52,897 bases of DNA from an uncultured Myxococcales bacterium. GTDB taxonomy: Bacteria; Myxococcota_A; Bradymonadia; REDH01. Every line of letters begins with the position of its first letter. The stretch's first letter is position 1. Both the position numbers and the translations under genes were made by a program. This document shows, piece by piece, positions 2,058 to 11,778 of this stretch. A model generated the notes under the pieces. It was not told the DNA's origin, made no database searches, and was given only the letters and a program-made list of their open reading frames with translations. The stretch spans positions 1 through 52,897 of the forward strand of contig CAZFPM010000009.1 in assembly GCA_964520965.1 (NCBI GenBank). The letters run 5' to 3'.

Positions 2058-4643
2058 ATGTCCGTCGAATATCGTCATGATCGCGGTTGCCTGGAGCGCA
2101 AGGTTCGGGGCGGTCCCTTCGTCGGCGCCGGAGCCGAGGATCACTATCCGCCCGATCTCCGGGCAGAGCCGGTCCACATGGCCCTCTCGCTCCTGGTCGA
2201 CATTCCCGGGGCGACCCTGGTCGGGACGAACCGTCTCACGGTCGTGGGGCACGGGGCCGGCACCGACACGCTGACCCTCGACGCCGTCGACTTCCTCGAC
2301 GTGGCTGTGACCGACGCCCGCGGCAAGGCCCTCGCGTTCGACTACGATGGCAGCAAGCTGGTCATCCACTGGGACAAGCCGCTCGGCGGTGGGTCGCGGC
2401 GACAGGTCGAGGTCGCCTGGCGTGTGCAGAAGCCCGCCTCGGGGCTCTACTTCTCCAGCCCGACCGGCGCCTATCCGAACGCCGCGACATACGCCGCCAC
2501 CGACAACGAGACCGAGCGCGCCCGCCACTGGATGCCGTGCATCGACCTCCCGAGCGTGCGGCCGACCCTGGAGATCGCCCTTCGCGCCCCAGACGGCCTC
2601 ACGATGCTCGCCAATGGCGCCCACGTCGGCGACGAGGTGCACGACGACGGAACCCGGACGGTCCGGTGGAAGCTCGATCAGCCCTGCCCGAGTTACCTGA
2701 CCTGCGTCGTCGTCGGCGACCTGCTGACCGTCGATGACGGGGCGTTCGGCGATGTGCCCGTCGCCTACTTCGCGAGCCACGAGTTCGACGAAGACGACGT
2801 CCGGCGTGCGTTCGGGAAAACCCGCGCGATGCTCGCCTGGATGGCGGAGAAGCTCGGCCACCCCTTTCCATATCCGAAGTACTACCAGTTCGCGCTGCCC
2901 GGCTTCGGCGGGGCGATGGAGAACATCTCGCTCGTGTCCTGGGACGATCGCTTCCTCCTGGACGAGTCCCTGGCCCGCGAATGGACCCGCCTGGTGGATC
3001 AGATCAACGTCCACGAGATGGCGCACAGCTACTTCGGCGACCTGATCGTCTGTCGCGACTTCGCCCACGCCTGGCTCAAGGAGTCGTGGGCGACATACAT
3101 CGAGCAGTGCTGGTTCGAGGACGTCCTCGGCGCCGAAGAGGGGAACTACGAGTTCTTCCTCAACGCGCAGGCCTACTTCTCCGAGGCCGACGAGCACTAC
3201 CAGCGCCCGATCGTGACGCGGCGTTTCGAGAGTTCGTGGCAGCTCTACGATCGGCACCTCTACCCCGGCGGCGCCTGCCGCCTGCACACCCTGCGCAAGC
3301 TGCTCGGCGACGACGTGTTCTGGGAGGGCGTGCGGCTCTACGTGAAGCGCTACGCCGGCCGCACCGTCGAGACGGACCACTTCCGCCACACGTTGGAGGA
3401 GGTCTCCGGGCGCTCCCTCGGCGCCTTCTTCGATCAGTGGTTTCATCGCAAGGGCTACCCCCGCCTGGCCGCGAAGTTCCGGTGGGACAAGAAGGCGAAG
3501 CTCGGCTTCTTCGAGATCGAGCAGGAGCAGATCGATGCGGAGCAGGGCGTCGAGGCGTTCGACTTCGATGTCGAGGTCGGCTGGACCGACGAGGCCGGCG
3601 CGTCGCACGTGCGGAGTGTGCGCCTGCATCTCGCGAAGCAGTCGGTCGCAGTGCCGATGGAGGCGGAGCCGGTGCGCGTCCGCATCGATCCCGGTTCGAA
3701 GGTCCTCTGCAAGCTGGACTTCAACCCGGGCGACGACAAGCTCCGGGCGCAGATCGCGGCGGCGGACGATGTGGTCGGGCGCATCCTCGCTGGGCGCGAG
3801 CTCGTGAAGACCGGCAAGCGGCGGAATGTCGAGGTGGTCCGCGACGCGACGATGAAGGAGCGTTTTTGGGGCGTGCGCGCGGAGCACGCGAAGACACTGG
3901 GTCGGGCGAGCAACGAAGCGGCCCTGGATGCGCTGGTCGAGCTGGTTGGCTGGGAGCGCGATCCGATGGTGCTGGAGCACCTGTACGCGGCGATCGGGCG
4001 CTACCGTGATCCGCGCATCGTCGAGGTGCTGAAGCGGCGCTTGGAGACGGGGGTTCCCCATCGCGCGACCGCCGCGGCCTATGTTGCGCTCGGTGCGCAG
4101 CGGGACCAGGCGCCGCTCGGCCTCCTGGTCGAGGCCGCCGAGCGCGAGGGGTTCGGAGGTTGGGAACAGAGCGGCGCGCTGAAGGGGCTGGCAGCCACGC
4201 GGCGCAAGAAGGCGATCCGCGCGGTGTCCCGGGCCACGGTGTACGGCCAGACTCCCAACCGCAGCGCACGCCCGGCAGCGGTCGCCGCCCTCGGCGAGCT
4301 GGCCGCTACCGTCGACGGGCGGAAGCGACGGGCCGAGGTGGTCGAGCGGCTCACCGATCTGTTGCGCGATCCCGTCGACCGGGTCCGACTCTCGGCAGCG
4401 CGCGCGCTATCGACCGCTGGCGCACACGAGGCGATCCCCGCGCTCCAGGCGTTCGCAAACACGGTCTCCCACCAGGAAGCCGTGATGGTCCGCACGTGGG
4501 TTGCCCGGCTACGCAAGAAGCGTGGGGCAGAACCGAGCGCGAAGGACGAGGTCTTGGACGAGCTGCGGGAGAAGGTCCGCAAGCTCGAAGAGGCAGTGGA
4601 CAAGCTCGAGGCGAGAGTCACGCCTGCCGAAGAAGAAAGATGA
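2058..4643 (+). CDS. M1-family zinc aminopeptidase (aminopeptidase N-like) with a C-terminal HEAT-like helical repeat region
   Basis: GAMEN exopeptidase motif (GFGGAMENISL). HEXXH-x18-E zinc site (VHEMAHSYFG ... WLKESWATY). The C-terminal ~250 aa are A/L/R-rich helical repeats. A GAGGTG RBS lies 4 nt before the ATG. Confidence 0.9.
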   Translation: MSVEYRHDRGCLERKVRGGPFVGAGAEDHYPPDLRAEPVHMALSLLVDIPGATLVGTNRLTVVGHGAGTDTLTLDAVDFLDVAVTDARGKALAFDYDGSKLVIHWDKPLGGGSRRQVEVAWRVQKPASGLYFSSPTGAYPNAATYAATDNETERARHWMPCIDLPSVRPTLEIALRAPDGLTMLANGAHVGDEVHDDGTRTVRWKLDQPCPSYLTCVVVGDLLTVDDGAFGDVPVAYFASHEFDEDDVRRAFGKTRAMLAWMAEKLGHPFPYPKYYQFALPGFGGAMENISLVSWDDRFLLDESLAREWTRLVDQINVHEMAHSYFGDLIVCRDFAHAWLKESWATYIEQCWFEDVLGAEEGNYEFFLNAQAYFSEADEHYQRPIVTRRFESSWQLYDRHLYPGGACRLHTLRKLLGDDVFWEGVRLYVKRYAGRTVETDHFRHTLEEVSGRSLGAFFDQWFHRKGYPRLAAKFRWDKKAKLGFFEIEQEQIDAEQGVEAFDFDVEVGWTDEAGASHVRSVRLHLAKQSVAVPMEAEPVRVRIDPGSKVLCKLDFNPGDDKLRAQIAAADDVVGRILAGRELVKTGKRRNVEVVRDATMKERFWGVRAEHAKTLGRASNEAALDALVELVGWERDPMVLEHLYAAIGRYRDPRIVEVLKRRLETGVPHRATAAAYVALGAQRDQAPLGLLVEAAEREGFGGWEQSGALKGLAATRRKKAIRAVSRATVYGQTPNRSARPAAVAALGELAATVDGRKRRAEVVERLTDLLRDPVDRVRLSAARALSTAGAHEAIPALQAFANTVSHQEAVMVRTWVARLRKKRGAEPSAKDEVLDELREKVRKLEEAVDKLEARVTPAEEER

Positions 4644-5498: not shown

Positions 5499-7294
5499 CT
5501 ATCGCACCAGTGGGTTCTTCGCGATCACCCAGGCCTGATCGTCGGTGATGTACACCTCGTCGGCGTCTCCACCGCTGGGGAACATCAGGTTGTAGCGGTC
5601 GGGGCAACTCGCAGACGGAGCGACATCACATTCGGGTGTGTCGGCAAGTGGGTCATGGCCGTCGTCGATCATCTCACTCGTGTGGAACAGGCCGAGGTAG
5701 TGGCCGATCTCATGGGCGAAGAGCACGACGGTGAAAGCGTGGATCCAGCCGTCTCCGCTCATGCTGATCCAGTCGGAGTCGACGTAGAGCGCGCTCGTAT
5801 CGGTGCCATGTACGCCCCCGGGACCGAGGATCGGTGACAGGCCCGCGGCGGACATCTCGGCGATCCCGTGCAAGACAAACACGTTCAGGCTGCGTTGCCC
5901 CTCGATGTCGGCGGTCGGGGGGCGGTCGTGAGTGCGAGCTCGTCGAGCTCGTCGTGGTTTCTGATGATGCCGTAGCGCTCGACCGTTTCGGGCTCGGCGT
6001 CGAAATACCGCACCGTGCCAAGCCGAACGTCCGCGGGCGCGAACACCCGGTCGACGCCCTCGAAGGCTGCCAGCAAGCCGGGGTGATGAGGGGCGAGCGC
6101 AGCAGGGATGGTCGGCGTCACCGAGATGACGTTCAGGTCGAGCTCCCCACCGCCTGGCGTGCCGAAGAGCAGGTCGATGCAGCCGCGACCGACTGGCGTG
6201 TCGAAGACGATGTCGTGGTTCCCCACCGCGAAGTCGGTTGCTCGCGTCGGGTAGGGCGGCAGCATGATCGTGTGCACATTCGTGCCGTACGTACCCATCG
6301 ACCCGAAATGCAACGAGGTGTCGAACGAGATGCGTGCCACCGCGTTGCGCACCGCGGACGCGCGGACGAACTCGCCGTCTGGCGAAAACGCATTGATCAT
6401 CAACGAGTCCACGCCGGTCGACGGGACGTCGAACGACCAACTCTCAGGCATGCGATCGAAGCACGCGCCGTCTGTCGACACCGCCTGGTCGAAGTGCGCG
6501 GGGACTGGGATATGGAGATCGGGGGAGAAGCAATACGGGTAGTGGACAGACTGCCCATCGATGCACCGATGTCCGTCTCTGCAATCGTCGTCTCCTTCGC
6601 AACGCACGGCGCAGAACGTGACGTCGTAGGCGGCCATGCAATAGGTCGCGCGACCGTCCGGACCCCGGCACTCGGCGTCCGAGAGGCAGTTCGTCCGCGT
6701 GCAGTACCCGCCAGGCACGGCAGTCAGGCACGTGCCGCTCGCGCACGCGGCATCCGAGACACACGGGCTCCCGTCGGGGGCACCGGGCGGTCGCGGGAGG
6801 CATCCGCCGTCACGGCATTCGTAGCCTTCGCGGCAATCGCCATCGCCTTCGCAACGAAGGGCGCAATCGGCGCCCTCTGCGAGCTGGGCGCACGTGCCGA
6901 TCGTCCGGCACTCGCGATCACACGGTCGGGAGCAGTAGCCTCCCGGGAACAGTGGGGCGGTCACGCAGACACCTTCGCCGCACTCGGCGTCGCTGACGCA
7001 AGGCGCCCCGATGCGCGACGGCGGTGCCCCGCGATCTTCCGGGACCGTCGCGTCGGCTGCGGTCACGACATCCGGGCGCAAGTCCACGCCCACGTCCGGT
7101 ACGGGAGCCATCGCCTCGTTGCACGCGCAGGCGAAGACCACGCTGATCACGAGCACCGCCCACCGCCGCCGGTGCGACGGGGCTGCGTCCGTCTCCGACC
7201 CGCGAGTGGAGCGCTTCGTGCGACGATCGAACACCGGTTCACTCCGGGACGATGGTGATGCACCCCTTCGGATCCTCTCGATCCGAACGGTCAC
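5499..7294 (-). pseudogene. M43/pappalysin-like metzincin lipoprotein, reading frame broken at a C6 run (true pseudogene or homopolymer assembly error)
   Basis: ORF 5885-7294 carries a lipobox (VISVVFAC) and Cys-rich modules. ORF 5499-6440, in another frame, carries HEIGHYLGLFH...DTPECD. The two frames meet at plus-strand GGGGGG 5917-5922. One extra base restores ...ELALTTAPPTADIEGQRSLNVFV... The start codon is uncertain. Confidence 0.6.
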
Positions 7295-7433: not shown

Positions 7434-7453
7434 TCATCGTTGGGTAGCGGACC
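7434..7453. repeat. Left copy of an imperfect 20-bp inverted repeat bracketing the low-GC cassette
   Basis: TCATCGTTGGGTAGCGGACC compared with the reverse complement of 9442-9461, CCATTGTTGGGTAGACCACC. The 9-nt core GTTGGGTAG is perfect and 15/20 positions match overall. Confidence 0.3.
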
Positions 7454-7460
7454 TTCGGAA

Positions 7461-7718
7461 TCAGGGAGGCGTCCCGGCGGGAAGCAGATACTTGATGGGA
7501 CGAGGATCGAGCCGCCGTTTCACTTGTGGGACCCGGAAGTCAGCTGCGATCACGCCTTCGCGCTTGAGCTTCGTGAGTACCCGTCTTGCGTGAGTTCCGC
7601 GAAATCCGTCTTCGAGGCACGCCTTGAGCAGGTCGAGTTCGTTCCGATACCGGCGTCCACGCAGCGCAGCCTCGAGCTCGTCTTCGAACGCACGGACCTT
7701 CTTCGGCCTGTCGTCCAT
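7461..7718 (-). CDS. Small (85 aa) helical / winged-helix-like protein. It is either a separate gene or the frameshifted C-terminal domain of TcmP.
   Basis: Protein-like composition (MDDRPKKVRAFEDELEAALRG...ARRVLTKLKREGVIAADF). There is no obvious RBS. It overlaps the compositionally odd S/R/T-rich tail of ORF 7550-8806. Confidence 0.5.
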   Translation of the reverse strand: MDDRPKKVRAFEDELEAALRGRRYRNELDLLKACLEDGFRGTHARRVLTKLKREGVIAADFRVPQVKRRLDPRPIKYLLPAGTPP

Positions 7719-8548
7719 GAAACCGAGAAGCAGATTGGGGTCGTCGCGAAGGCCGTCTCGGTGATGTCGAAGTTCGCCTCTCCAGTGCTTTCGTCTTGTG
7801 CCCAGGCCACGCTCAAGAACTTGTCGATTCCGAGCAGGTGACCGCTTCCGAAGATCAGGCCGTAGATGTTGGAGCCCTTCTTGAATGAGAACGGCGCAAG
7901 GTAGTACTCGAGGTTGTCAGGCAACAGCGAGCGGAAGTACTCCAACACAGCTCGATGGACGCTGTGGTAGTCATCGACCGGTCCCAGTTCTTGCTTGATC
8001 GCCGGGTGGTCGCGGAACCGGTGCAAGGTCGATGATGAAATGAAGAAGATGAAATCGCAGAACGGCGCGCGCACCAACTCCGCAAAGACGTCGTCGGTGA
8101 CGAGGCCGACTCCGAACTGATCGAGCAAGACCAACTTCGCTGTGTCTCGCGCCCGGAGCGTCGGCAGCGACTCGCGAAACGCGTCCCCGAACTCCAGAGC
8201 TTCGACTCGAGAGCCAGGCGGAAGCTCAAATCCCCGGCTTTCGATGTTGGCTCGTAGTTGGCGGACATTGAGGCCGTTCTTGTCCGTGAAGTGAACTTCG
8301 GAGGAGACCCCTTCGACGGTCCGGCTACCGTAGCGGCGCAACTCTTCAAGTAGGATGAGAGGGCTGCCAGGAACCCCCGCGTCGTCGCAACCCTGCCCTG
8401 CGAAGAAGTCGAAGAGGCAGACACGGCGGCACATGGGCTTCTTCGAAACAAGAAACACAGGAAGCCACTCCCGCGCATATGATCGGAAGATCTCGAGTTT
8501 CTTCCTGGTCGCGTCGTCGAATGTCCCGAAAAACTCCCCCGGAGTCAT
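7550..8548 (-). CDS. tcmP: Three-Cys-motif partner protein TcmP (TIGR04474-like). The last ~60 codons are probably out of frame.
   Basis: The ATG at 8546-8548 is preceded by GAGGTGGGA and lies 8 nt after the DUF5131 stop. The N-terminus FFGTFDDATRKKLEIFRSYAREWLPVF and the FDFFAGQG motif match my recollection of the family, as does its position directly after a PF07505 gene. The tracked ORF start at 8806 overlaps the upstream gene. Confidence 0.7.
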   Translation of the reverse strand: MTPGEFFGTFDDATRKKLEIFRSYAREWLPVFLVSKKPMCRRVCLFDFFAGQGCDDAGVPGSPLILLEELRRYGSRTVEGVSSEVHFTDKNGLNVRQLRANIESRGFELPPGSRVEALEFGDAFRESLPTLRARDTAKLVLLDQFGVGLVTDDVFAELVRAPFCDFIFFISSSTLHRFRDHPAIKQELGPVDDYHSVHRAVLEYFRSLLPDNLEYYLAPFSFKKGSNIYGLIFGSGHLLGIDKFLSVAWAQDESTGEANFDITETAFATTPICFSVSWTTGRRRSVRSKTSSRLRCVDAGIGTNSTCSRRASKTDFAELTQDGYSRSSSAKA

Positions 8549-8555
8549 TCCCACC

Positions 8556-9350
8556 TCAAGTGATGCCAGCGACAACAGCGGAGAGCATTGCGTGGCGTTT
8601 GGCTCTCGATGGCTGCTCCGCCGCAGTGAAGGCCGGAAACTCGCTGTACGTTCGTCCGTCCAACTCACGACCTGCGGCCTTCTTTCGAACGCCCCCCCAT
8701 TGCTTGAAGAAGAACGGAACTTCGGCTTCCTCGCACTGCCGTTGGATGGACCGGACCCAACCAGGCGCCATCGGCCGTGCGCCCCGTCCGCTCTCTCCGC
8801 CGACAATCACCCAGGCGATCCCAGAAAGGTCGACGCTACCGAGATCCTCCAGCAGCGGTTCGACCGACAGGAACCGAACCGACACCGGGGATTCCCTCAG
8901 CTGCTCGAGCCGTGGCAGCCCGTGCTTTCGGTTCTCGACGCTAACGCCCCACCATACATGCTCCGCGTCTCGCGCGAACGACAGGCGACCGGAAAGAAGC
9001 TCTTTCATGCGCTCAGAGCGCTTCGTTAGCACCTGATAAGTGTGCCAATTGGCGTCTGCCATGACGCGCACCACGCGCTCGATGTACTCGTCCGGAACAT
9101 CCTCGTGGAACAGATCGCTCATTGAGTTGACGAAGATCCGACGCGGCGCTTCCCAGCTCAAGGGCTCGCCCAACTTCTCCGGTACCAACGTCAAGTCGAA
9201 GCCGTGTTCGAACGGATGGCCAGGGACCCCGCGGAACCTCTCTGCTAGCGTTTCGGCGTAGCAATGCTTGCAGCCCGGACTCACCTTGGTGCATCCGCGC
9301 AACGGATTCCACGTGGCGTCGGTCCATTCGATTGCGGAGCGCTGGCTCAT
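8556..9350 (-). CDS. Phage Gp37/Gp68-family protein (DUF5131 / PF07505), the three-Cys protein
   Basis: IEWTDATWNPLRGCTKVSPGCKHCYAE (C-x6-C-x2-C). FVNSMSDLFHE. WHTYQVLTKR. FLSVEPLLEDL. IAWVIVGGESG. FFFKQWGG. All are typical of the family as I recall it. Confidence 0.85.
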   Translation of the reverse strand: MSQRSAIEWTDATWNPLRGCTKVSPGCKHCYAETLAERFRGVPGHPFEHGFDLTLVPEKLGEPLSWEAPRRIFVNSMSDLFHEDVPDEYIERVVRVMADANWHTYQVLTKRSERMKELLSGRLSFARDAEHVWWGVSVENRKHGLPRLEQLRESPVSVRFLSVEPLLEDLGSVDLSGIAWVIVGGESGRGARPMAPGWVRSIQRQCEEAEVPFFFKQWGGVRKKAAGRELDGRTYSEFPAFTAAEQPSRAKRHAMLSAVVAGIT

Positions 9351-9441
9351 CGACCTGTCGCGGGTGACATCCGTTCAGTAGTGGCAGGGCCTGGGGTTGT
9401 CAACGACAGGGAGTGTATTGGGCGAGCGGCTCAGGGGCGAC

Positions 9442-9461
9442 GGTGGTCTACCCAACAATGG
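9442..9461. repeat. Right copy of the imperfect 20-bp inverted repeat bracketing the low-GC cassette
   Basis: See 7434-7453. It lies between the SDR stop (9472) and the DUF5131 start (9350). Confidence 0.3.
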
Positions 9462-9471
9462 GTTGCCCAGG

Positions 9472-10191
9472 CTACAGGTCCTCGGACTCCAACATCTTTC
9501 CCGCGCCGGCGGGGTCGATCGTGGCCTCGACCAGGGCGCTGGCCAGCTCGGCTCCGGTGCGCGCGGTGTAGCGCCGCTCGAGTTTCTTCGCGCCGAGAGC
9601 CCCCAGCGCTCGCAATGCGCCGCTGACGACGATGGCACCGACACGCTCCCCCGGCCGCGACTCGGCGCGATCGTCACCGGAGATGAACGACGGGCGGGCG
9701 ATGGTGAGCGGAAGCCCGGTTCCGCGCAGATGTTCCTCGGTCTTCCAGCGACACTGCAGGTAGGCGCCGGCGGCCGACGGGCCGGTGCCGATCGACGAGA
9801 GGTAGACGAAACGGGGGGCGATGCCGGAGGCGACGCAGGCGTCGGCGAGGAGCACGGTCAGGCCGAAGTCGACCGAGTCGTAGCTGGGCTCCACGCCGGT
9901 TCGCTGTTCTTCCCGGCGCGCGCCCGCGCGCGTGATGCCCAGCAGGCCGAAGACGAGGGTGGGCCGGAAGTCCGCGAGCTTCGCGGCGAACGCTTCGGCC
10001 TCCCATGGCGTCGTGTCGACGCGCGCGCCGGCCTCCTCGAAGTGCGAGCGCACCTCGTCGAGACTGCGGGAACCCGGGCGCACGTGGGCGAGGGTCTCGA
10101 TGCCCCGCCGTCGCAACGCCGCGACCACCGCTCGGCCCGTGTATCCGGTCGCACCGGCGACGAACGCGCGATGCTCCGGCCCGCCACTCAT
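9472..10191 (-). CDS. NAD(P)-binding atypical SDR / NmrA-like protein
   Basis: Rossmann motif AFVAGATGYTGRAVV. The ATG at 10189-10191 overlaps the upstream TGA (ATGA). The tracked start at 10254 is upstream of this coupling site. Confidence 0.75.
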   Translation of the reverse strand: MSGGPEHRAFVAGATGYTGRAVVAALRRRGIETLAHVRPGSRSLDEVRSHFEEAGARVDTTPWEAEAFAAKLADFRPTLVFGLLGITRAGARREEQRTGVEPSYDSVDFGLTVLLADACVASGIAPRFVYLSSIGTGPSAAGAYLQCRWKTEEHLRGTGLPLTIARPSFISGDDRAESRPGERVGAIVVSGALRALGALGAKKLERRYTARTGAELASALVEATIDPAGAGKMLESEDL

Positions 10192-11048
10192 GCGCCGGGC
10201 GCTCCGCCGCCGGGCTTGCGGAAGTCCGGTGCGTCGATCGAGATGAAGCGGCACATCTCGGACAGCCGCGAGAACATCCGCGCGCCGACCCGCGACTCGA
10301 GCGTCGTCACCTCGAATCGTTCGCGAGACCTGCTGCGCGGCGCGGCCTCCGGTGCCTGGACCGGGTAGTTCGACGTGAAGAAGGTCGTAACGCGGCTGTT
10401 GTAACGCTTGGAGATCAGCTCATCGAGGATCGCGTTCTGCCACTCCGTGGTCAGCCCCTTGCCGAGCTCGTCGATCACGAGCACCGGCACCTCGACGACG
10501 TGGGCGATGATGTCCTGAGTGGGATTGCCGGATTCGAAGCCCGCCTTGAGCTCCGAGAGCAGGTGGGTGAACTCGACGAAGCGGGTCGCGACCCCGTCGG
10601 TGAGCGTCAGTTCGCGGACCAACGCCGCCATCAGGTGGGTCTTGCCGGTCCCGACGGGCCCGATGATGCCGAGCCCGAGGTCGCCGGTCTCGAATCCCCG
10701 CGTGGTCTTGAAGCAGGCGATCTTCGCGGCCCGGACGCTGTCGTTCACCTCGACCGTGCCGGTCTCCAGATCGGCGTGCGCGTAGCGACGGGGGATGCGG
10801 GCCTTGTTGAAGAGGCCGATGCGACGATCGATCTCCAGGCACTCGCAAGGGGCCGAGGCGGGAGATCCGGTCCAGTCCTTCGTGAGCACGTGCCCGGTGC
10901 CGCCGCAGCGCTCGCACTCGGCGAAGCAGTCTGGACAGCGGCTGGCGATGACATGGTGTTCGCCCTCGGTCGTCACGACGCGGCGGTCACGGCAATTGCG
11001 GCAGTGGTCGCTGTCGTCCCGGGACGCGAGTTGGCGGATCATTGACAT
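10188..11048 (-). CDS. DnaC/DnaI/IstB-like AAA+ ATPase with an N-terminal Cys-rich zinc-ribbon (DnaJ-type CxxCxGxG)
   Basis: Start MSMIRQLA at 11048. Cys cluster CRNC...CPDC..CERCGGTGHV...CEC. Walker A GPVGTGKTHL, Walker B VLVIDELG, sensor FFTSN. No IstA-like transposase is nearby. Confidence 0.75.
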   Translation of the reverse strand: MSMIRQLASRDDSDHCRNCRDRRVVTTEGEHHVIASRCPDCFAECERCGGTGHVLTKDWTGSPASAPCECLEIDRRIGLFNKARIPRRYAHADLETGTVEVNDSVRAAKIACFKTTRGFETGDLGLGIIGPVGTGKTHLMAALVRELTLTDGVATRFVEFTHLLSELKAGFESGNPTQDIIAHVVEVPVLVIDELGKGLTTEWQNAILDELISKRYNSRVTTFFTSNYPVQAPEAAPRSRSRERFEVTTLESRVGARMFSRLSEMCRFISIDAPDFRKPGGGAPGA

Positions 11049-11079
11049 GGCCGGAGCGTAATGGCGGGCGACGCGGCGA

Positions 11080-11778
11080 TCAATCGCCGAGCATCGACGG
11101 GATGGCGAAGCGTTCGGCGAGGTGTTCGCGGAGCGCGCGGTCCCAGGCGGAGTCACGCGAGCCGGAGGCGTGCCCGTGGTCGACCAGCACCCGCGCGACC
11201 TGCGCCTCGACGGCGCGCCGCGACTCCGGGTCGAGCCCGGCGAGCACCCAGCGTGCGACCGCGTCGTCGACCAGGGCGAGGATCGCGGCGTCGAGCTCAC
11301 CGTCGGTCGCGATGATCTCCTCGAGCTCCTCGCGGGTCTTCGCTGCCGCCGATCGAACCGCGTCGTGCGCGTGTTCCGAGGCGGTTCGGCCGAGCGCGGC
11401 GAGCACCCCCTCGGCGAGGGTCGGCGCCGTCGTCGTGGCGCCGGTGTCGGAGGTCGGCCGTCGAGCGGCCGGATCGGCGCCGGGCGGCGTTGTCGCTGGC
11501 ACGGAAACTGGGTCGGCGCTGGTGCCGTCGGCCTCCTCCTCGGCGCCGCGGCTCCACCGCTTGAATGCGTTGGTCACGAAGCGCCCGCAATCGGTCAGCG
11601 ACTTCGGCGGCTCCTTCCGCCGGTCGAACGCCCCGTCGATTCCCTCGAAGACCACCTCGAGCGGAATGTCCCGCGCCTCCCAGTTGCCGATCACGTGTTG
11701 ATCTGCCCCGGAGACCGCGGACCCCTTGCCGCGCCGCTCGACGAAATACTCGACGATGCTGCGGGCGAAGTCGGGCAT
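11080..11778 (-). CDS. Hypothetical protein (two helical domains joined by a P/T/A-rich linker)
   Basis: The ATG at 11776-11778 is preceded by an AAGGA RBS. GC3 is high and composition is real-protein-like (MPDFARSIVEYFVERRGKG...). I recognise no family. Confidence 0.6.
   Translation of the reverse strand: MPDFARSIVEYFVERRGKGSAVSGADQHVIGNWEARDIPLEVVFEGIDGAFDRRKEPPKSLTDCGRFVTNAFKRWSRGAEEEADGTSADPVSVPATTPPGADPAARRPTSDTGATTTAPTLAEGVLAALGRTASEHAHDAVRSAAAKTREELEEIIATDGELDAAILALVDDAVARWVLAGLDPESRRAVEAQVARVLVDHGHASGSRDSAWDRALREHLAERFAIPSMLGD

Follow-up and report, generated by a model that had tools for sequence, protein, structure and literature searches.

Here, we describe a cassette of two genes, DUF5131 followed by tcmP, in the window, that is, the stretch of 52,897 nucleotides formed by contig CAZFPM010000009.1 of an uncultured Myxococcales bacterium (GenBank assembly GCA_964520965.1). 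The two genes lie in the same orientation on the minus strand within positions 7434-9461. We read them as a horizontally acquired operon and as a member of PDC-M30, one of the phage defence candidate (PDC) sets modelled in PADLOC, with a frameshifted tcmP gene in the window and with intact copies elsewhere that would perform S-adenosylmethionine (SAM)-dependent, DNA-directed modification or defence; we assign this reading as a whole a probability of roughly 0.7. The region had been singled out by a prediction made from the sequence alone (hereafter 'the original prediction'), which proposed an undescribed system of three genes. The PADLOC check that it recommended shows that the adjacent genes match both PDC-M30 profiles of PADLOC-DB v2, tcmP matching the TcmP-like component A (PDC-M30A, E 5e-80) and its neighbour the DUF5131 component B (PDC-M30B, E 1.5e-103). 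The module in the window has most likely lost its activity and is an ordinary, if damaged, member of this catalogued pair.

The supposed third gene, an open reading frame (ORF) at 7461-7718, is the severed C-terminus of TcmP, so the module consists of two genes only. This ORF overlaps, out of frame, the 3' tail of the 332-aa tcmP ORF (overlap 7550-7718). The 332-aa ORF corresponds to positions 10-275 of the 368 positions of PDC-M30A, the match stopping at about residues 266-270, and ORF 7461-7718 corresponds to positions 287-351 of the same profile (E 6.4e-9). In three-frame translations, the homologous reading switches frame at 7760-7763, and when the frames are joined at approximately this point, the resulting product of 362 aa can be aligned over its whole length with homologues of about 358 aa (49-61% identity). 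Together, the frame switch, the profile positions, and the repaired alignment identify ORF 7461-7718 as the C-terminal winged helix-turn-helix (wHTH) domain of a frameshifted tcmP; the DNA-binding, wHTH-like element of the original prediction is therefore real, but it is a domain of TcmP and not a gene of its own. Homologues carry FDI(N/D)RE(N/G)I at the junction, which indicates that one base of an AAC or GAC codon was lost there; judging from this alignment, the ancestral junction probably read ATC (A/G)AC CGA GAC, encoding FDI(N/D)RD. In the AlphaFold model, the break falls at the boundary of the methyltransferase-like domain, just before a disordered linker (residues 266-279; predicted local distance difference test score [pLDDT] <50).

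A fused TcmP of about 358 aa with a C-terminal wHTH is the norm of the subfamily, and the window copy departs from it. We surveyed 80 homologous loci of GTDB species representatives (Verrucomicrobiota, Nitrospirota, Acidobacteriota, Planctomycetota, Actinomycetota, Myxococcota, and other phyla), and tcmP is a single continuous match in all 80; full-length representatives of the TcmP family, which comprises 2,471 clusters at 50% identity, are overwhelmingly 355-395 aa long.

It is very improbable that the frameshift arose in sequencing or assembly and that the gene is intact in the organism. A lone sibling contig (L005) has a seemingly intact 360-aa gene call, which would favour an artefact, but this call is itself artefactual, as 10 N (~3057-3066) replace 15 bases and thereby shift the frame; we consequently rejected it as an intact tcmP allele. 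(Automated comparisons should allow for spurious gene calls of this kind in public assemblies.) The junction contains no long homopolymer (ATCACCGAG), and seven sibling contigs, which come from separate samples and assemblies of marine metagenomes, share an identical 31-mer across the junction. The shared 31-mer and the run of N in L005 together establish the frameshift as a real allele in every assembly that covers the site.

Owing to this 1-nt deletion, the window copy is probably inactive or crippled. The alternative that the split is functional, with the methyltransferase-like domain of TcmP, a separate 85-aa wHTH protein starting at the ATG at 7718, and DUF5131 acting together, strikes us as improbable. 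It would accord with the position of the deletion exactly at the interdomain linker, with the containment of the entire wHTH in ORF 7461-7718, with the retention of all family-invariant residues in the two halves, and with the presence of the same allele in all seven assemblies covering the site. Yet the homologues are fused in all 80 loci, as are almost all family representatives, the N-terminal product would bear about 69 out-of-frame residues, and there is no Shine-Dalgarno-like sequence before the ATG at 7718 (CTTCTCGGTTTCATG). Moreover, decay of a single partner is known elsewhere, DUF5131 being broken in two of the homologous loci (L012 and L042). A damaged tcmP thus remains the preferred explanation.

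The N-terminal domain of TcmP is modelled as a class I SAM-methyltransferase fold. It matches the naming model TIGR04474 with 123.6 bits against a cutoff of 53 (E 1.3e-35; residues 13-251 to profile positions 2-262 of 263). The AlphaFold 2 model (pLDDT 86.7) has a Rossmann-like alpha/beta domain, which Foldseek relates to class I methyltransferases (TYW4, TomG, RlmJ, SpeE, CmoA, and others) with a probability of 1.0 and E values of 4e-6 to 1e-4. The segment FDFFAGQG (residues 46-53), which had been likened to methyltransferase motif I from the sequence alone, follows strand 42-47 and includes four residues (F48, F49, G51, and G53) that are invariant among 49 homologues, and the invariant D89 ends the beta-2 strand (82-89); fold and conservation agree with the proposed motif. 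Methyltransf_25 gives a weak match in only 4 of the 49 members (best E 0.063 in a scan to E 10). The C-terminal winged helix is modelled as helices and strands over residues 284-354, and the corresponding family, PF22560 (GMT-wHTH), scores 21.8 bits in the window copy and matches 41 of the 49 homologues; a literature search for GMT-wHTH, PF22560, and the InterPro identifiers found no papers.

The DUF5131 protein matches PF07505 with 335.8 bits against a cutoff of 28.9 (E 2e-100), residues 5-239 corresponding to profile positions 2-243 of 243. Both models of the catalogued pairing TIGR04474 and PF07505, which the original prediction had named, are therefore matched above their cutoffs. A search for homologues returned at least 8,000 matches, and homologues from different phyla are 67-77% identical. 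The cysteine motif that had been noticed in the window protein, C20-x6-C27-x2-C30 (CX6CX2C), is invariant in an alignment of 45 sequences that includes this protein, as is VGGESG at residues 183-188, and all columns invariant in the alignment are intact in the window. The canonical radical-SAM spacing, CX3CX2C, is absent, its place being taken by the CX6CX2C variant, which had been described as reminiscent of the canonical motif yet distinct from it, and which RadicalSAM.org lists explicitly for DUF5131 as radical-SAM Megacluster-5-2 (PMC9477430). TIGR04471, ‘radical SAM mobile pair protein A’, is matched with an E of 9e-23, yet far under its cutoff (80.9 versus 355 bits). In the AlphaFold 2 model (pLDDT 80), alternating beta and alpha elements form an alpha/beta barrel, the best Foldseek matches of which in the PDB are TIM barrels, including the lipoyl synthases 5exj and 8trw, albeit weak ones (E 0.02-0.03; template modelling [TM] scores 0.36-0.42). 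The structural comparison thus returned a methyltransferase fold for TcmP and a barrel with weak TIM-barrel matches for DUF5131; sequence searches of the PDB, with single sequences and with profiles, gave no meaningful match for either protein. The radical-SAM assignment of DUF5131 is a published classification, with which the present data are consistent, without amounting to proof.

DUF5131 and TcmP form a self-contained pair, and their pairing is obligate. The co-occurrence survey proposed together with the original prediction places DUF5131 directly upstream of tcmP, on the same strand, in 77 of the 78 loci that could be tested, the crude gap between them having a median of 5 nt (61 homologous pairs), and clustering of the flanking ORFs across the surveyed loci revealed no third recurrent gene. 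The commonest neighbour is an EcoEI-type HsdR gene, found upstream in 11 loci, and hsdM lies downstream of tcmP in 13; of 41 loci flanked by >= 5 kb on each side, 10 have the pair between hsdR and hsdM, i.e. within a type I restriction-modification (R-M) locus. Other neighbours are ParE, PIN, and MNT toxin-antitoxin genes, DUF4411 with ImmA/IrrE, DUF1016, a HerA-like ATPase, and an IS200-type transposase. The defence-type character suggested for the cassette is therefore apparent in its homologues, in type I R-M loci, but not at the locus described here, where the neighbours are core genes. In 65 of 66 loci, the cassette has a lower GC content than its flanks (mean difference, 5.8 points), which marks the compositional anomaly of the window as a family trait of a horizontally moving module.

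Several individual loci add to this picture. In three of them (L042, L050, and L070), only about 3-13 nt separate the tcmP stop from the hsdM start, a spacing that suggests a common transcript of the pair and the type I methylase gene. In L012 (9153-9756) and L042 (9176-9959), DUF5131 is fragmented while tcmP is intact, so decay can affect either gene by itself, and a strict toxin-antitoxin relationship becomes less likely. In three loci of Verrucomicrobiota, a divergent gene that resembles LexA by sequence (HTH and S24 peptidase) is situated just upstream of the pair (L055 4868-5680, L060 8430-9164, and L093 8437-9105), so that some lineages may regulate the pair in an SOS-type or prophage-type manner.

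Among phages, DUF5131 was found in 181 of 50,697 genomes. The phage proteins, assigned to PHROG 2045, are mostly <60% identical to that of the window (6 of the 181 records reach 60-80%), and their genes, usually solo, occupy early, replication, or lysogeny regions; solo DUF5131 lies beside DNA methyltransferase and HTH genes in Gordonia phage Bakery and in Rhodobacter phage RcapNL. A tblastn search with one TcmP homologue (P0002) came back empty, but the absence of TcmP from phages that this implied was overturned by Gordonia phage PantheRoc, gp41 of which matches TIGR04474 with 174.5 bits, and by BaxterFox, which carries the same DUF5131 and TcmP pair; both phages are temperate, and in both the pair is flanked by integrase and immunity repressor. 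The PantheRoc genes, gp40 (DUF5131) and gp41, stand tail to tail between integrase and immunity repressor (L100 3501-5233), an interval that is a typical site of prophage-encoded defence genes, and are annotated merely as hypothetical proteins. In Burkholderia phage phiE125 (L098 996-2319), a GenBank note likens gp37 to Mycobacterium tuberculosis Rv2734; gp38 of this phage is not TcmP-like, and an ISBt3 insertion lies two genes upstream of gp37.

The foreign composition claimed for the window cassette is borne out by each measure applied, including the codon-position and k-mer comparisons recommended at the outset. Its GC content is 60.5%, versus 69.0% for the rest of the window; GC content at third codon positions is 0.732 in DUF5131, 0.748 in the N-terminal part of TcmP, and 0.670 in the wHTH frame, against 0.875±0.032 in host genes (n=23), which corresponds to z values of about -4 to -6; and its tetranucleotide distance to the window exceeds that of all 500 host segments of equal length. 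The gene order in the window is yidC-mnmE-gyrB-232aa-AAA-SDR-[cassette]-metzincin-ECH-M1 peptidase, and its GyrB shares 70-73% identity with those of metagenome-assembled genomes that bear the labels Myxococcales, Deltaproteobacteria, or Bradymonadia, compared with 57% for Lujinxingia; these values identify the host as a marine member of the uncultured Myxococcota.

Through GyrB homologues we reached a relative within the Myxococcota (L102) that keeps MnmE (52% identity), GyrB (73%), AAA (60%), SDR (53%), and M1 peptidase (52%) and has neither DUF5131 nor TcmP between SDR and M1 peptidase. The presence or absence of the cassette could therefore be compared as proposed, and the claim that it was inserted between unrelated chromosomal genes gains a syntenic relative without it, but no defence island exists at this place. 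Two further GyrB-bearing contigs (L103 and L104) have no synteny beyond gyrB, a scan of contigs with the adjacent AAA protein for an empty site gave nothing, and a scan of metagenomes with SDR gave only two contigs, at 48% identity and non-syntenic. The closest cassette (61% and 73% identity) adjoins Planctomycetota-type genes with PSD/PSCyt domains. Composition, the gap in L102, and the setting of this closest cassette support acquisition into a variable spot.

A more specific version of acquisition, in which the cassette is a small mobile element with terminal inverted repeats at 7435-7457 and 9438-9460, is hardly credible. An inverted repeat with a core of 12/13 matches (18/23 overall) in the flanking spacers does bracket the cassette exactly, but shuffles reached an equal or better score in 3.3% of cases and real segment pairs of the window in 13.8%, and none of about 80 homologous cassettes has the motif in its flanks. 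A tRNA scan found no tRNA in the window, and there is neither an integrase nor a transposase. The repeats were therefore rejected as terminal inverted repeats and put down to chance.

We consider the intact pair likely to be a SAM-dependent, DNA-directed modification or defence module, inferring this from folds, motifs, and neighbourhoods. DUF5131 would be a radical-SAM-type enzyme with a [4Fe-4S] cluster held by CX6CX2C; the Rossmann domain of TcmP would bind SAM, and its winged helix would bind nucleic acid, most likely DNA. The two proteins would act as one unit, installing or processing a non-canonical nucleic-acid modification, and this modification would serve self/non-self discrimination, a role that would explain the siting of the pair between hsdR and hsdM and beside temperate-phage repressors.

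Two other functions have to be weighed against this proposal. The pair could be a DNA-damage repair or tolerance module, in which DUF5131 reverses a lesion by radical chemistry and TcmP targets DUF5131 to DNA. Such a role, which we regard as unlikely, would be in keeping with the membership of DUF5131 in Megacluster-5, which also holds spore photoproduct lyase and an MJ0683-like subgroup (PMC9477430), with a mitomycin C response of M. tuberculosis in which Rv2734 is induced alongside Rv2735c, recX, and recA (PMC5057432), with the likening of phiE125 gp37 to Rv2734, and with the divergent LexA-like genes beside the pair in L055, L060, and L093. However, a patchy distribution, consistently low GC content, variable neighbourhoods, and embedding in type I R-M loci are not what core repair genes typically show, S24 repressors of the LexA-like type also occur commonly in prophages and mobile elements, and the family link of Rv2734 comes solely from the phiE125 GenBank note.

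The second possibility, modification of RNA (tRNA or rRNA) with TcmP as an RNA methyltransferase-like enzyme, has in our judgement only a slim chance of being correct. TYW4, RlmJ, Trm5a, CmoA, and MnmM are among the best structural neighbours of TcmP, but these matches reflect the generic class I fold (TM scores 0.3-0.5; 9-16% identity), and the wHTH, the embedding in R-M loci, the position in a prophage immunity region, and the DNA methyltransferase and replication genes that neighbour phage copies favour DNA.

Several observations weigh against the reading of an acquired, damaged pair whose intact copies perform DNA-directed modification or defence. On the side of DUF5131, the Foldseek matches are weak (E >= 0.019), and Pfam Radical_SAM went undetected in all 45 members, even at E values up to 10. 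On that of TcmP, no significant Pfam methyltransferase match was obtained among the 49 members, and the end of beta-4 reads IDQxGV, which is no known catalytic motif and is not (D/N/S)PP(Y/F); from these sequences, TcmP might bind SAM without methyl transfer. Residual function of the split gene is conceivable in view of the invariant residues kept in both halves. The neighbours in the window (SDR, DnaC/IstB-like AAA, gyrB, and M1 peptidase) are core and not defence genes, and L102 is distant (GyrB 73%), so that the time of acquisition cannot be dated. Finally, literature searches on DUF5131, TcmP, and PDC-M30 gave mentions in catalogues but no experiment on any member, in accordance with the original statement that no function had been experimentally assigned.

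A bolder version of the proposal can be put forward tentatively, although we hold it to be doubtful: intact pairs would be a new radical-SAM-based DNA modification or immunity module that writes or erases a new mark and aids or backs up type I R-M, solo phage DUF5131 would be a counter-measure or the phage's version of the enzyme, and even the split tcmP would possibly be functional.

The features of the cassette are collected in Table 1. The GAGG-type Shine-Dalgarno sequence ahead of tcmP overlaps the stop codon of DUF5131, an arrangement that suggests translational coupling of the two genes; the tight coupling and the GAGG ribosome-binding site described earlier are both present, but the spacer is 7 nt long and not 8. 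A promoter is only inferred to lie within the spacer upstream of DUF5131, as a consensus scan for promoters and terminators found no sigma-70-like site in 9351-9471 and nothing that exceeded background.

Table 1. Features of the DUF5131-tcmP cassette and its borders (positions in the window).
Feature	Position	Strand	Basis or remark
DUF5131 gene	8556..9350	-	264 aa, apparently intact
Spacer between DUF5131 stop and tcmP ATG, GGTGGGA, 7 nt	8549..8555	-	Sequence
tcmP 5' in-frame part (about residues 1-263), Rossmann methyltransferase-like domain with motif I FDFFAGQG	7761..8548	-	TIGR04474, E 1.3e-35
Frameshift site, 1-nt deletion (...TTC GAC ATC AC/C GAG ACG...)	7760..7763	-	Three-frame translation and homologue alignment
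tcmP 3' part in the other frame, linker and C-terminal winged helix	7461..7760	-	PDC-M30A positions 287-351 of 368
Out-of-frame tail of the 332-aa tcmP ORF, about 69 codons	7550..7759	-	No TcmP homology
121-nt spacer between SDR/epimerase gene stop and DUF5131	9351..9471	-	Presumed promoter region
Inverted repeat, left arm, 12/13 (CATCGTTGGGTAG)	7435..7447	.	Right arm at 9448-9460

Two other segments near the cassette deserve mention. The gene downstream of it (5499-7294, minus strand) also looks split. It is occupied by a 449-aa cysteine-rich ORF (5885-7234) without a Pfam match and, 30 nt after this and in another frame, a 118-aa ORF (5499-5855), the match of which to reprolysin/metzincin profiles is confined to their C-terminal third (HEIGHYLGLFH; positions 135-183 of 203). 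The 118-aa ORF is called in all sibling contigs that cover the segment, and the 449-aa ORF in three of four (L001, L004, and L005), L002 having a call of 250 aa; besides tcmP, the variable segment may thus hold another frameshifted gene at 5499-7294. Just downstream of gyrB, positions 10188-11778 (minus strand) hold a DnaC/IstB-like AAA+ gene, the 284-aa product of which has a cysteine-rich N-terminal region, and a 232-aa gene without a Pfam match. Both are present in the same order in L102, and they look like a lineage-specific core pair beside the yidC-mnmE-gyrB cluster.

The DUF5131-TcmP pair is already catalogued, as TIGR04474/PF07505, by RadicalSAM.org, and as PDC-M30 in PADLOC. It can thus not be called an undescribed system, the pair having been modelled by PADLOC and DUF5131 listed by RadicalSAM.org. 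PDC sets are phage defence candidates collected through guilt-by-embedding in BREX, DISARM, and R-M loci (bioRxiv 10.1101/2024.01.29.577857); other PDC systems have been tested experimentally, with mixed results. PDC-M30 was recorded in 32 of 100 Pseudomonas aeruginosa strains, 68.8% of which were phage-resistant (PMC10855318), and PA14 carries two copies (PMC11878078). In Sinorhizobium meliloti, tcmP (SMa2243) is listed beside hna (SMa2245) and is co-upregulated with it (PMC12445080).

The window locus itself adds little, being a damaged copy of a pair that databases already flag, but it is a worked example of how a seeming three-gene system resolves into a broken two-gene one. The chemistry of the pair could reveal a new nucleic-acid modification or defence principle: about one-quarter of the well-flanked copies are inside type I R-M operons, and the pair joins two SAM-related folds. 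The context of 80 loci for PDC-M30 is new here, and it points to better, intact candidates in a Nitrospiraceae locus (L018) and in Gordonia phage PantheRoc.

Among known systems, PDC-M30 is the closest. The window genes match both of its profiles strongly and are adjacent and co-oriented, and homologous pairs are embedded in type I R-M loci in the manner by which PDC sets were gathered; in contrast to such sets, the A gene of the window is frameshifted and no defence locus surrounds it. The models PF07505 and TIGR04474 are both matched above cutoff, with the pairing present in 77 of 78 testable loci, but they are naming models without an assigned activity, and the TcmP of the window is severed from its wHTH. 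PDC-M41, in which DUF5131 has another partner, shares the family of the B component (E 3.7e-103), whereas the window TcmP matches PDC-M41A with an E of 0.0096 only, compared with 5e-80 for PDC-M30A. Solo phage Gp37/Gp68 proteins (PHROG 2045) are homologous to the window DUF5131, but they nearly always occur without TcmP, PantheRoc and BaxterFox being the exceptions found.

Compared with radical-SAM Megacluster-5, DUF5131 has an N-terminal three-cysteine motif, in the CX6CX2C variant, and is modelled with a barrel-like alpha/beta fold. It differs in that Pfam Radical_SAM gives no match and sequence searches detect no solved structure. The substrate of spore photoproduct lyase is a defined thymine dimer, which the enzyme repairs, whereas the DUF5131 subgroup is without a characterised member.

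PrrC, lastly, is an anticodon nuclease, and PrrC-type genes in type I R-M operons resemble the pair in their position between hsd genes, which 10 of 41 homologous loci share. PrrC is cited as the paradigm of an R-M-embedded system in the preprint of Payne et al. (bioRxiv 10.1101/2024.01.29.577857). The DUF5131-TcmP pair has no sequence or domain similarity to it, however, and possesses two SAM-related folds and no nuclease domain.

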